This document shows, piece after piece, positions 29,410 through 63,904 of a stretch of 64,000 nt of DNA. The DNA comes from Gemmatimonadales bacterium. Lineage in GTDB: Bacteria > Gemmatimonadota > Gemmatimonadetes > Gemmatimonadales > GWC2-71-9. Position 1 is the stretch's first letter, and each line of letters begins with the position of its first letter. A program made the translations under genes and the position numbers. The notes below the pieces were generated by a model, which ran no database searches, was not told where the DNA came from, and saw only the letters and a program-made list of their open reading frames with translations. Location: NCBI GenBank assembly GCA_033764135.1, contig JANRJE010000012.1:67290-131289 (forward strand), in the 5' to 3' direction.

Positions 29410-31311
29410 ATGGCCCTCCTGGGCTTGCAGGAAATCACGCTGTCGTTCGGCGGTCCGCCGTTGCTGGACCGTGCCACGCTGGCCATCGAGCGCGGCGAGC
29501 GGGTCTGCCTGATCGGTCGCAACGGTGCCGGCAAGAGCACCATCATGAAGCTGCTCGACGGCTCTCTACGCCCAGATTCCGGCGAGGTGGTCCGGCAGAC
29601 CGGGGTGACGGTGGCTCGTCTGGAGCAGGAGGTCCCCGGCGAGGTTGCCGGGACGCTGTTCGACATCGTCGCCGAGGGGCTCGGCGCGTCCGGCAGACTG
29701 CTGGCGGATTACCAGCACGCCAGCCATCGGGTGGCGCTCGACCACAGCGACGCGGCGCTCAATGAGCTCGACCGGCTCCACCATGCCCTCGATGCTGCCA
29801 ATGCCTGGGAGGTCAAGAGCCAGGTGGAGACGGTGCTCGAGCATCTGGGGCTCGACCCCGAGGCGCCGTTCGCTGCGGCCTCCGGCGGTCGCAAGCGACA
29901 GACTCTCCTGGCAAGGGCGCTGGTGGCCCAGCCCGACATCCTGCTGCTCGACGAGCCGACCAACCACCTCGACGTCGCCGCGATCGAATGGATGGAGAGC
30001 TATCTCATCGCTCGCGGCACGACGATGGTGTTCGTGACCCACGACCGCGCCTTCCTCAGGCGAATGGCGACCAGGATCGTCGACCTCGACCGCGGCAAGC
30101 TGGTCGACTGGGCCACCGACTACGACACTTACCTGGAGCGAAAGGCCGCCTCGCTGGAGACCCAGGCCACCGAATGGAGCGAGTTCGACAAGAAGCTGGC
30201 ACGCGAGGAGGTCTGGATCCGGACCGGCATTCAAGCCCGCCGCACCCGCAACGAGGGACGGGTGCGCGCCCTCGAGGCGTTGCGGCTCGAACGGAGCGCT
30301 CGCCGGGAACGCACCGGCACCGTGCGCCTCCAGGCGCAGGAGGGTGAGCGCTCGGGGAAGCTGGTGGTCGAGGCGAAAGGAGTCAGTTTCGGCTACGGAG
30401 ACGAGCCGATTGTCAGCGATCTCACCACCACCATCGCGCGCGGCGACCGGATCGGACTGGTGGGACCGAACGGGGTCGGCAAGACCACCCTGCTCCGGCT
30501 GCTGCTGGGTCAACTCACCCCCGACAGCGGCACGATCCGGCTGGGGACCAATCTCGAAGTGGCCTACTTCGACCAGTTGCGCGAACAACTCGATCCCGAG
30601 CAGACGGTCGTCAACAGCATCGGTGACGGCACCGAGTTCATCGAGATCAACGGCGCCCGGAAGCACGTCCTCGGCTACCTGCAGGATTTCCTCTTTTCGC
30701 CCGAGCGCTCACGCACTCCGGTGCGGGTGCTCTCCGGCGGCGAGCGCAACCGGCTGCTCCTCGCCCGGCTCTTCACCCGGCGCTTCAACGTCCTGGTGCT
30801 CGACGAACCGACCAACGACCTCGACATCGAGACTCTCGACTTGCTGGAGGAGCTGCTGGCCAACCTCTCCGCCACTCTGCTGATCGTTAGCCACGACCGG
30901 GCCTTCCTCGACAACGTGGTCACCAGCACGCTGGTCTTCGAGGGAGAGGGACGGGTGGGCGAGTACGTCGGCGGCTATTCCGACTGGGTGCGCCAGCGCG
31001 ACGCTGCCGGGCGCGCGGCCCGGGCGGCATCCCCCCCCCGAGCGACCGGCGGCAAACCGACCGTTCAGAAGGGCTCACGTCGCCGGAAGCTGCCGCACAA
31101 GGATGCGGTTGAGCTCGCCGCGCTGCCCGACCAGATCGATGCTGCCGAGCGGCAACGCGAAGAGCTGCTCGCAGTGATGGCCGATCTGGCGGCACGCGCC
31201 GACGCCAAGTCGCTCGCCGCCACCGCAGCGGCTCTCGCCGCACTGGAGCAGGAAATTGCCCGCCGGATTGCCCGCTGGGAGGAACTGGAGCTGAAAGCCG
31301 GTGAGGGGTGA
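29410..31311 (+). CDS. uup: ABC-F family ATPase (Uup-like, two ABC domains plus C-terminal coiled-coil)
   Basis: Two Walker A motifs (GRNGAGKST, GPNGVGKTT), two signature motifs (SGGRKRQ, SGGERNR) and a C-terminal coiled-coil/DNA-binding-like tail. There are no TM domains. Confidence 0.85.
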   Translation: MALLGLQEITLSFGGPPLLDRATLAIERGERVCLIGRNGAGKSTIMKLLDGSLRPDSGEVVRQTGVTVARLEQEVPGEVAGTLFDIVAEGLGASGRLLADYQHASHRVALDHSDAALNELDRLHHALDAANAWEVKSQVETVLEHLGLDPEAPFAAASGGRKRQTLLARALVAQPDILLLDEPTNHLDVAAIEWMESYLIARGTTMVFVTHDRAFLRRMATRIVDLDRGKLVDWATDYDTYLERKAASLETQATEWSEFDKKLAREEVWIRTGIQARRTRNEGRVRALEALRLERSARRERTGTVRLQAQEGERSGKLVVEAKGVSFGYGDEPIVSDLTTTIARGDRIGLVGPNGVGKTTLLRLLLGQLTPDSGTIRLGTNLEVAYFDQLREQLDPEQTVVNSIGDGTEFIEINGARKHVLGYLQDFLFSPERSRTPVRVLSGGERNRLLLARLFTRRFNVLVLDEPTNDLDIETLDLLEELLANLSATLLIVSHDRAFLDNVVTSTLVFEGEGRVGEYVGGYSDWVRQRDAAGRAARAASPPRATGGKPTVQKGSRRRKLPHKDAVELAALPDQIDAAERQREELLAVMADLAARADAKSLAATAAALAALEQEIARRIARWEELELKAGEG

Positions 31312-31380
31312 GGGGTGAGGGGTGAGGGGTGAAAGGTGAAACGGGGTGTGGAGTTGCCCTCCGTTTCACCTTTCACCATT
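31296..31380. repeat. Palindromic element: (GGTGAGGG)x4-GGTGAAAGGTGAAACGG ... CCGTTTCACCTTTCACC between the convergent uup-like gene and the S8 protease gene
   Basis: Read directly. It starts inside the last codons of the ABC-F gene. The inverted GGTGAAA unit recurs at 36668, 38766, 58489, 60457 and 63810. Confidence 0.85.
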
Positions 31381-31385
31381 CGCTC

Positions 31386-63500: not shown

Positions 63501-63718
63501 GGGTGTTGCAACTGCGCTGCCAGCATCACCTCGCGCCGGAAGCGCTCGACCGAAAGTCCCGCCAACAGCTCCGGAGCGAGCACCTTGACCACCACGCGCC
63601 GATCAAACGCCAGCTCCCGGGCCAGATAGGTGCGCGACATCCCGCCGCCGCCGAGCTCGCGCTCAAAGGCGTAGCCGCCGGCCAGGGCCTGCTCGATTGT
63701 GGTCCGGAGGTTGTCCAC
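60563..63718 (-). CDS. Ser/Thr protein kinase with a TM segment and a long C-terminal TPR-repeat domain
   Basis: GTG at 63718. 'LGGGGMSRTY', 'VVKVL', 'HRDIKPDNVLL', 'DFGIA' and 'GTPAYMAPE'. Two TM segments follow, then about 600 aa of TPR-like helical repeats. Confidence 0.85.
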   Translation of the reverse strand: MDNLRTTIEQALAGGYAFERELGGGGMSRTYLARELAFDRRVVVKVLAPELLAGLSVERFRREVMLAAQLQHPHVVPVLTAGEVDGIPWFTMPYVDGDSLRHRLGRGAIGIGEAVSVLRDVARALSYAHARGIVHRDIKPDNVLLSSGTATVTDFGIAKAISAARTDQPAGNLTLTQVGTSIGTPAYMAPEQALGDPTVDHRADIYSFGVMAYEVLTGRPPFVASTPTKVLAAHMSETPRPVTELRPDCPPAFGELVMRCLAKDPDGRPQQAGELVQLLETITPSGSGAGMPAILQGGPIRLGRALALWAGATLAVVITAWAAREAIGLPDWVLPGAVGVMLAGLPVLLATAFIQRTAHRAFTATPHRTPSPQGTMATLALKASPHVSWRRAWMGGAFAVGGFAVLVVGFMVMRAIGVGPMASLAAKGALGESGLVMVADFVSPPSDSTLGATVAEALRTDLAQSATLRILTRSDIREQLTLMQRPVDSPLLFELSQQIATREGAKAVLDGSITRLGQSYVISARLVSALDGKDLALFREEAANDDALLGALGKISKQVRARAGESLKAVRASSELDRVTTPSLPALRKYVEGMRLADEEGEMERGMALLREAVELDTAFAMAWRKLAVLINNEGRDRQAMIDAVSTAYRHRARLTEMERLLTEGFYFTRGPEPDRTKALAAYQAAAELDSLSTSAINNAAVVLGEMYQYERAESLYRKVIKLPQPFGGAFTNLLIAQINNGNTAALDSTQALFRATFPNSNDVWEGDWYVAWGKGDRDRADSIARAIATDPKTLRQALRANNSLGEIAILEGRIRDASTAYTRSADALLRARPTGASRLAFYLDSAFIRQAAGDDAGALAVVERGLQRVPMEEIPVSERPWGTLRVIGALTRNPPLIRRAAAGWERDQAGLNPDPEAFRIGTASLLAYAEGRWQDAITEGRRAEARYAAPPKAAAALHGVAFRAMGQVDSAIASMERSLAIPDPFANTASTWHPRLLQELGELYEQKGDRTKALERYRSFVELWQNADPELQPRVREIRERIARLEQERG

Positions 63719-63904
63719 CCGAAATCCGATCTATGGGGTATCACCGAATATGGGGTGAGGGCGCGTGAGGGGAAAGGGGAAAGGGGGACGGGGGAAAGGG
63801 GGACAGGGGAAAGGTGAACGGGGCGTGAAAGGTGAAACGGGAAACGGGATACCGGAATTCCCCTCGTCCCGACCGCAGGGAGCAACTGTCTTTCGGCTGA
63901 GGTT
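63719..63904. repeat. Composite element: (GGGGAAAG/GGTGAAAG)-type repeats plus the core CCCTCGTCCCGACCGCAGGGAG, between the kinase start and an IS110 transposase fragment
   Basis: Read directly. The core motif is shared with 40069 and 43714. Confidence 0.8.

Follow-up and report, generated by a model that had tools for sequence, protein, structure and literature searches.

Inverted arrays of seven- and eight-nucleotide repeats at gene ends in Gemmatimonadales: candidate bidirectional terminators or mRNA 3'-end protectors

What are the repeats that occupy so many of the gaps between genes in a genome of the Gemmatimonadales? The question arises from a stretch of 64,000 nucleotides of a soil bacterium of the Gemmatimonadales (assembly GCA_033764135.1, contig JANRJE010000012.1; the window hereafter), for which an initial annotation had proposed a family of intergenic elements, each made of short purine-rich tandem units on one side and their reverse complements on the other. 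This proposal of a non-random intergenic family was borne out. Tandem Repeats Finder and a separate lag scan of the window located arrays with a period of 7 or 8 at each of the twelve listed sites (at least 13 had been announced). The lag scan yielded 14 period-7 and four period-8 arrays; periods 4-6 and 9-12 were not represented, and the block-shuffled window sequence gave no array. At a relaxed threshold, 19 of 19 arrays were intergenic and none of the 19 was inside a gene, on a map of 46 genes drawn by codon usage. The elements were less widespread than had been claimed, however, since arrays were present not in nearly every gap but in 11 of the 26 called gaps that measure 40 nt or more and, in addition, in the one at the edge of the window; the density was highest between 36 and 44.6 kb (7 of 8 gaps), and arrays made up about 14% of the intergenic DNA of the window.

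The architecture had been described as constant, but five of the twelve sites are not palindromes. Seven are true palindromes (463-547, within an array span of 463-548; 12906-13048; 31298-31377; 36692-36789; 40005-40242; 43675-43870; and 60457-60528), three are solo arrays (41936-41978, 43187-43219 and 58497-58531), one is a composite (arrays at 38765-38885) and one is followed by an insertion sequence (arrays at 63765-63856). Five unit families are found in the window, namely GGTGAAA/GGTGAGG/GGTGAAC, GGATGTT, GGTCGTA, AAAGAGAG and GGGGAAA, and the unit measures 7 nt (GGATGTT, GGTCGTA, GGTGAAA/GGTGAGG) or 8 nt (AAAGAGAG), not 8-9 as previously judged. Four arrays overlap a stop codon (TAA at 463-465, and TAG at 12914-12916, 41938-41940 and 43674-43676) and the stop codon of an ABC-F gene (31309-31311) is inside an array.

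For comparison, we used 49 Gemmatimonadota loci (786 kb; about 850 kb with the window) and, as a control, 31 loci of Acidimicrobiia (446 kb). An unbiased search for strong inverted repeats found 24 of 32 to be 7/8-periodic in the window and Gemmatimonadota loci versus 0 of 3 in Acidimicrobiia, and at a looser threshold there were 31 periodic intergenic repeats versus 0 of 15 in the control. The self-identity of the arms was 0.65-0.69 at lag 7 and 0.22-0.36 at lags other than 8. The periodic palindromes also obey a polarity that the initial annotation had missed: in 24 of 24 the left arm on the plus strand is purine-rich with G exceeding C (and by symmetry this holds for the minus strand as well), and in 18 of 24 A also exceeds T in that arm. 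At the looser threshold, 28 of 31 periodic repeats were G-first, while non-periodic ones were G-first in 6 cases and C-first in 10. Two tallies of paired elements in convergent (G-rich first) orientation gave 19/19 and 24/24 G-first. No description of such repeats in Gemmatimonadota was found in the literature searched.

The position of these elements is as biased as their orientation. Paired elements were present in 10 of 62 gaps between convergent genes, in 5 of 231 tandem gaps and in 3 of 98 divergent ones, that is, a roughly sevenfold enrichment of convergent gaps over the rest (8/329; Fisher p = 8e-5), and arrays of any kind occurred in 25 of 62 convergent versus 7 of 98 divergent gaps (p = 9e-7). 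Palindromes in convergent gaps usually span the whole stop-to-stop interval, 1-20 nt from each stop codon, and among the strong hairpins at gene ends in this region the heptamer palindromes dominate. Folded as RNA, those of the window reached, in folds of 81-146 nt, -45 to -88 kcal/mol, and for six of the seven shuffle-based folding gave z-scores from -5.2 to -13.6; the 40005-40242 element and the full 43677-43873 gap were folded without shuffles, the latter giving a minimum free energy (MFE) of -126 kcal/mol. A GC-rich stem-loop directly past the stop codon, as expected of a terminator, is thus what the elements provide. Conversely, matches to canonical terminators (at least 5 T within 8 nt after the stem) between 30 and 46 kb were at chance level, with 7 found and 6.9 expected. 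Six of these were inside genes, and the seventh was a stem of only 5 bp on the inner border of the 43675-43714 arm and not the palindrome itself. Matches to sigma-70 promoters were likewise at chance level only, and the window gave no Rfam hit at the gathering threshold and no tRNA.

We believe that the paired elements act as bidirectional hairpin terminators and/or protectors of mRNA 3' ends that are rebuilt by slippage, a reading to which we assign a probability of about 0.5. That elements between convergent genes could act as terminators had been suggested in the initial annotation, and the suggestion gains support from the enrichment in convergent gaps, the closeness to stop codons, a polarity that is strict and the failure of canonical terminators to exceed chance level. 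In full form the element is an inverted pair of arrays, purine/G-rich first and pyrimidine/C-rich second on whichever strand it is read, and according to this model a transcript from either side, because of the fixed polarity, would fold into a long stable hairpin with a pyrimidine-rich 3' arm. Located at the boundaries of transcription units, such hairpins may bring about factor-independent termination both ways and/or shield the upstream mRNA, and they could stand in for the hairpin-plus-U-tract terminators lacking in this high-GC genome. The purine/A-rich 5' and pyrimidine/T-rich 3' sides seen on both strands correspond to the A-tract, hairpin and U-tract of a bidirectional terminator. Pyrimidine-rich RNA on purine-rich DNA is the least stable RNA:DNA hybrid and, therefore, a pyrimidine-rich 3' arm would favour transcript release. 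Replication slippage in 7-nt steps may create and renew the arrays, and selection and/or template switching within the palindrome may keep the arms complementary, so that a site would last through changes of unit sequence and copy number. A solo array would then be a half-decayed or newly forming element, and the hairpin centres would be landing sites for a GC-rich core element resembling repetitive extragenic palindromic (REP) sequences and for an insertion sequence of the IS110 family. With bidirectional intrinsic terminators the elements share the location in convergent gaps a few nucleotides past the stops, the strong hairpin and the purine 5' and pyrimidine 3' flanks; they differ in having no canonical U-tract and in their repeat-built stems of 17-42 bp, and their terminator activity is a prediction.

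Several observations weigh against this interpretation. Apart from the missing U-tract, two of the common units, GGATGTT and GGTCGTA, yield no U-rich 3' arm. Divergent gaps, where a terminator is unneeded, hold three or four of the periodic palindromes (36692-36789 in the window, and others in loci L005 and L006), and the solo arrays at 41936, 43187 and 58497 have no stable fold (z about 0). On the transcribed strand G.U mismatches outnumbered A.C mismatches (8:2 and 7:3), a difference that would speak for selection on the RNA but was only suggestive and not significant. The gap types rest on our own codon-model gene calls, and metagenome-assembled genomes (MAGs) made from short reads under-sample the arrays. 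A purely structural role does not foresee that unit families recur across species. Last, the polarity is not universal. The trimer (GGATGTT)3 was found in at least 120 metagenome contigs (L085-L204), mostly of 55-62% GC and from soil and peat, and in the lower-GC contigs (AACATCC)n is upstream of (GGATGTT)n with a spacer of about 30 nt, with 26 C-first pairs versus 5 G-first. Since this is opposite to the order in Gemmatimonadales, the polarity is specific to the lineage, and any final mechanism must account for that. These (GGATGTT)n arrays of metagenome contigs often stop 8-20 nt short of a start codon. The same contigs, together with the recurrence of the architecture and of some units in other Gemmatimonadota, show that the repeats are not confined to the locus.

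Comparison of strains and species bears both on the reality of the elements and on their origin. A look-up of the flotillin protein (37454-38725, with an adjacent NfeD-like gene) returned four short-read contigs, one of them 100% identical to the window and ending in the arrays at 36698 and 40038, and two more contigs 100% identical to the window (runs DRR729085 and DRR729084) ended in the arrays at 31303 and 40038. Because these contigs (L003, L205 and L206 are the ones breaking inside heptamer arrays) stop within the repeats, the latter fragment short-read assemblies, and MAGs thus under-report them. Three contigs from strains 96-98% identical crossed the elements at 36692 and/or 38726 unbroken and, with two elements crossed by independent short-read assemblies, an assembly artefact can be dismissed. 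At 36692-36789, strains L001 and L002 are one unit shorter on both arms, and at 38726-38900 strain L004 is without the second GC hairpin and the GGTGAAA units. The 27-nt GC hairpin in question (GGGGCCGCCGCGAGGCGGCGGCGGGGT) is present in two copies in the window and in L001/L002 and in one copy in L004 (2020-2065), and the run of nine G past the flotillin stop codon is one of eight in L004. Strain variants of seven other window proteins were not on record, and the strain-level evidence for coupled change of the arms is thus that of one element. The closest genomes are Gemmatimonadales MAGs (91-94% identity in flotillin and 96% in EttA). In L005, the element upstream of ettA is orthologous to that of the window, with the same GGATGTT arms and centre, and has about 4 and 3 units where the window has about 6 and 13, a sign of vertical inheritance.

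Across loci, synteny is limited to the flotillin operon with its two genes, and there the site persists while the unit sequence turns over. Arrays within 200 nt past the flotillin stop codon were detected in 11 of 48 Gemmatimonadota loci versus none of the 31 of Acidimicrobiia, and by eye about 20 Gemmatimonadota loci have heptamer-periodic palindromes at this place. The units vary by genome (GCGAGAA, CGGAGAA, GGACGGA, GAATGYT and GAAGAGG, among others), and the hairpin arms have an identity of 0.69 at lag 7 and about 0.25 at other lags. Moreover, units next to each other differ less than units farther apart (0.47 versus 0.83 mismatches, p = 2.5e-5), the pattern expected of stepwise local duplication. 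This slippage signature, the fast turnover of units and copy numbers and the existence of solo arrays and divergent-gap elements would also be compatible with functionless by-products, that is, slippage arrays arising where selection is weak, copied across small hairpins by template switching and tolerated mostly in convergent gaps, which are free of promoters; the related Xanthomonas repeats discussed below have no function found despite reporter tests. We regard this main rival as possible, if the less probable account, for strand-symmetric mutation does not foresee a purine-first polarity in 24 of 24 palindromes, nor are by-products expected to sit exactly at stop codons, to be kept as a palindrome of altered sequence at one site across species of 72-94% protein identity, or to draw on a limited unit vocabulary common to several species.

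That vocabulary could instead reflect protein-binding sites in a 7-nt register, with a nucleoid protein or a single-strand binder (of the cold-shock-domain type or another) making the elements regulated terminators or antiterminators, or sites that organize the chromosome. A few units do recur within and between genomes (GCGAGAA in 13 arrays of 9 loci, GGATGTT in 12 arrays of 5 and GGTGAAM in 10 arrays of 6), the period is exactly 7 nt, and cold-shock proteins bind heptamers with one protein per unit (discussed in PMC4679880). However, the 87 period-7 arrays of the Gemmatimonadota loci and window fall into at least 31 unit clusters, at least five families coexist in the 64 kb of the window, units are replaced at orthologous sites and no candidate protein was identified, all of which makes binding sites an unlikely explanation. 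Nor do the units resemble the Shine-Dalgarno (SD) sequence more than composition predicts: 12 match the extended SD by at least 5 nt with 11.7 expected, and we rejected SD or anti-SD mimicry. Two families may be combined in one palindrome, as at 15296-15423 of L006, where nested arrays follow in mirror order, (GGTGAAC)3 (GGTGAGG)3 ... (CCTCAC)2 ... (CCGTTCA)3.

The initial annotation had placed the elements outside CRISPR, MITEs (miniature inverted-repeat transposable elements) and classical REP sequences or bacterial interspersed mosaic elements (BIMEs), and we reached the same conclusion from the features that define each group. The units are of 7-8 nt and contiguous, unlike the 23-50-nt CRISPR repeats with unique spacers; arms and spacers are variable, with no common ends and no uniform length as in MITEs; and no conserved palindrome of 20-40 nt is common to the arrays, as it would be in REP, BIME or REPIN (hairpin-forming REP doublet) families. 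What does look dispersed is a GC-rich motif in the middle of some elements. This core motif, CCCTCGTCCCGACCG, has four copies in the window (40070-40084, 43714-43728, 43808-43822 on the minus strand and 63861-63875) against 0.84 expected, with a fuller form CCCTCGTCCCGACCG(n)AGGG, and it was absent from all 84 other loci searched. It is always central in a heptamer or octamer palindrome, and the copies at 43714 and 43808, the latter inverted, form a palindrome of 109 nt. The GC hairpins noted earlier as element centres are, at 40070, 43714 and 63861, copies of one dispersed element, one of which adjoins an IS110-family transposase gene. At 40050-40112 the motif falls within an insertion of the window relative to L005.

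The insertion sequence is represented by its end, at 63883..64000 on the minus strand, with a transposase C-terminus ...KPKKVALVACMRKLLTILNAMVAHDTEWAPA* whose stop codon is at 63903-63905, and it continues past the window edge. It adjoins the core motif at 63861 and the G-rich arrays upstream of a Ser/Thr kinase gene. The 31-residue transposase fragment was 77-82% identical to annotated IS110 family transposases (best E 2e-7, tblastn, plasmids), and Pfam gave no hit for these 31 residues. REP palindromes are known preferred targets of IS110-family elements (PMC12288879, PMC11208160), and the core motif (CCCTCGTCCCGACCGnAGGGAG) is either a REP-like IS110 target or a derivative of an IS110 end. 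The four dispersed copies, the nested transposase, the insertion relative to L005 and the unit families common to many loci are what could be expected of a mobile family, REPIN- or MITE-like, propagated by transposition. There is support for mobility, however, only in the case of the insertion sequence and the nested core, not in that of the arrays: these have no fixed ends, target-site duplication or constant length, their arms vary freely in copy number, and orthologous sites retain the element while changing the unit. Transposition of the whole elements is therefore very improbable.

We give equally little credit to two explanations based on the G-rich strand, that is, G-quadruplex (G4) elements such as those of GGGAATC repeats in Xanthomonas and Nostoc, or scars of double-strand-break repair, the two 3' ends having each received the same G-rich repeat before being joined, as in a head-to-head telomere fusion. 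G4 formation is possible at 31300-31332 (GGTGAGG units that include GGGG runs) and at 63768-63823, and G-first inverted arrays with unequal arms have the geometry of telomere fusions. No other site is G4-capable, however, since 10 of the 12 window sites are without a GGG run and only 12 of the 87 Gemmatimonadota period-7 units contain GGG, and on these grounds we rejected G4 as a general explanation, those two sites excepted. As for repair scars, no end-extending enzyme was found, nor is one known, and solo arrays and nested mirrored arrays like that of L006 fit stepwise growth better.

The closest precedent is that of the convergent heptamer pairs of Xanthomonas, which the initial annotation did not mention. 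GGGAATC arrays number about 185 in Xanthomonas, where each genome has 70-75 pairs of them that are in convergent inverted orientation and able to form stem-loops (Rehm et al. 2015, PMC4692102). Their G-rich strand is downstream on the coding strand, they are rarer between divergent genes, no function has been found for them, and they keep the same gene neighbours in related species while differing in length and sequence (PMC4692102); Nostoc has GGGGAYT repeats (PMC4692102). The Gemmatimonadales elements have the same architecture and rules (tandem 7-nt intergenic units, G-rich-first inverted pairs by the ends of open reading frames [ORFs], and under-representation in divergent gaps), but they fail the defining feature of one dominant G4-forming unit per genome, as they comprise at least five families in 64 kb, mostly without GGG. 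They differ also in belonging to another phylum, Gemmatimonadota, and in having nested mirrored arrays, a nested REP-like core and IS110. On the chromosome of Gemmatimonadota bin118 (CP070815; L048, 19777-19881) there is an 8-nt-period palindrome of GGGAATCC units, a near-match to the Xanthomonas GGGAATC.

More broadly, an excess of heptanucleotide repeats in bacteria has been described, with slippage proposed as its cause (Mrazek 2007, as cited in PMC4679880), and other cases are the cyanobacterial short tandemly repeated repetitive (STRR) sequences, TAACTGA of Beggiatoaceae and GGGACCG/MTYCTGA of Geobacter (PMC4679880, PMC2700814). With at least three head-to-tail 7-nt units in noncoding DNA and copy numbers differing among relatives, the arrays of the window qualify as such long simple sequence repeats (SSRs), and both favour period 7, are intergenic, lie near ORF ends and have had slippage proposed for them. 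Bacterial long SSRs, however, are mainly direct arrays, with one inverted case in a Beggiatoaceae genome, and the reports on them mention neither a rule of polarity nor enrichment in convergent gaps nor a role as hairpins. Like REP, BIME and REPIN sequences, the elements are extragenic hairpin palindromes at operon ends, with IS110 adjoining one of them here. REP elements act on mRNA 3' ends. They consist of one conserved sequence of 20-40 nt spread by REP-associated tyrosine transposases (RAYTs), whereas the arrays conserve only period, polarity and palindromy, and only the nested core (CCCTCGTCCCGACCG...) is REP-like. The purine-first polarity, the unit vocabulary shared across species and the opposite polarity of GGATGTT elsewhere allow a further, quite doubtful reading: a dedicated process in Gemmatimonadota, and perhaps in other soil phyla, by which DNA is written or read seven nucleotides at a time and in a fixed strand polarity. 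The candidates within this doubtful reading would be an enzyme that adds repeats or extends ends, or a protein each of whose subunits binds one heptamer. Were it true, the palindromes would be a distinct class of actively maintained boundary elements and not products of slippage shaped by selection.

The anatomy of the individual sites illustrates the variety of forms (palindromes and the divergent-gap element are not assigned to a strand). The first, at 463..547, is a near-perfect palindrome, (AAAGAGAG)x4.9 / (CTCTCTTT)x5.5, between queC (stop codon 463-465) and a radical-SAM queE-like gene (start 564); its arms of 42 nt are 95% complementary and 1 nt apart (MFE -68.7, z -9.0), and a variant unit is mirrored across both of them. 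The palindrome at 12906..13048, between convergent aconitase and sigma-70 genes (MFE -88, z -13.6), has a left arm (GGTCGTA)x8.7 at 12906-12966 with the TAG stop codon within, an inner hairpin at 12973-13006 and a right arm (TACGACC/TATGACC)x5-6 at 13005-13048. At 31298..31377 (z -5.2), where an ABC-F gene and a peptidase S8 gene converge, (GGTGAGG)x4 plus (GGTGAAA)x2 occupy 31298-31341, with the ABC-F stop codon among them, and are followed by a centre (31342-31363) and (TTTCACC)x2 (31364-31377), a partner being present only for the GGTGAAA units. The element at 36663..36789 (z -7.9) lies in a divergent gap, between gene starts at 36605 (minus) and 36815 (plus), and combines a decayed GGTGAAA array (36663-36687) with a palindrome of (GGATGTT)x4-5 (36692-36729) and (AACGTCC)x5 (36749-36789).

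Downstream of the flotillin gene, the composite gap at 38726..38900 (plus strand) contains the run of nine G and arms of different unit families: the 27-nt GC hairpin occurs twice (38741-38767 and 38779-38805) with (GGTGAAA)x2 between, and a degenerate GGTGTTG/AATATTGG stretch is followed by (AACATCC)x6 at 38842-38885, 15 nt short of the next start codon. Upstream of ettA, the palindrome at 40005..40242 has a left arm (GGATGTT)x5-6 (40005-40051), the 63-nt insertion at 40050-40112 with the core motif CCCTCGTCCCGACCGGAGGG, the native centre (40113-40148) and a right arm (AACATCC/AACCTCC)x13 (40147-40242). Between convergent CopC and PCuAC genes, the palindrome at 43675..43870 has arms (AGAAAGAG)x5 (43675-43714) and (CTCTCCTT)x5 (43829-43870) enclosing the 109-nt core palindrome (43714-43822; z -7.1), with CCCTCGTCCCGA(C/G)CG at each end. 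The palindrome at 60457..60528 (z -6.8), flanked by convergent X-Pro dipeptidyl-peptidase and Ser/Thr kinase genes, is (GGTGAAA)x4.6, a centre at 60484-60505 and (TTTCACC)x3.6. The three solo arrays, all on the plus strand and without inverted partner, are (GGTCGTA)x5 at 41936..41978, which begins on the ettA stop codon (41938-41940; z -0.3), (TGGATGY)x4.7 at 43187..43219, 53 nt upstream of the CopC gene start, and (CCGTTCA)x4-5 at 58497..58531, the reverse complement of GGTGAAC, 36 nt past a stop codon (z +1.0). Finally, the G-rich arrays at 63765..63882 (plus strand; GGGGAAA, GGTGAAA and GGGAAAC units) are upstream of a kinase gene start and end in the core motif CCCTCGTCCCGACCGCAGGGAG (63861-63882).

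The genes beside the elements, including the NfeD-like gene, flotillin and ettA, are ordinary housekeeping genes. As already noticed in the initial annotation, arrays generate long artefactual ORFs. Stop-free arrays, above all those of GGATGTT, stretch ORFs upstream of true starts (40012-41940, 36680-37450 and others), and the ettA ORF seems to begin at 40012, with a spurious N-terminus MLDVGCW..., when its real start is at 40264. Elsewhere in the window, no gene was called with confidence in the 1.2 kb at 56453-57666, from a bactofilin gene to an AP_endonuc_2 gene (xylose-isomerase-like TIM barrel), and the ORF at 56850-57518 has no Pfam match.

The reason for the bacterial preference for 7-nt repeats, and their role, has been an open question since the SSR survey of 2007. 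Gemmatimonadota offer a cleaner system in which to address it, as most of the long palindromes in the phylum are built of heptamers, with strict polarity, enrichment at convergent ends and persistent sites whose sequence is replaced. On the practical side, short-read assemblies break at these arrays, false long ORFs arise from them, and they attract IS110-type (bridge-RNA) elements. For the biology of the group, heptamer repeats would become a testable claim, namely that they may be the terminators or 3'-end protectors of a high-GC lineage without U-tract terminators.

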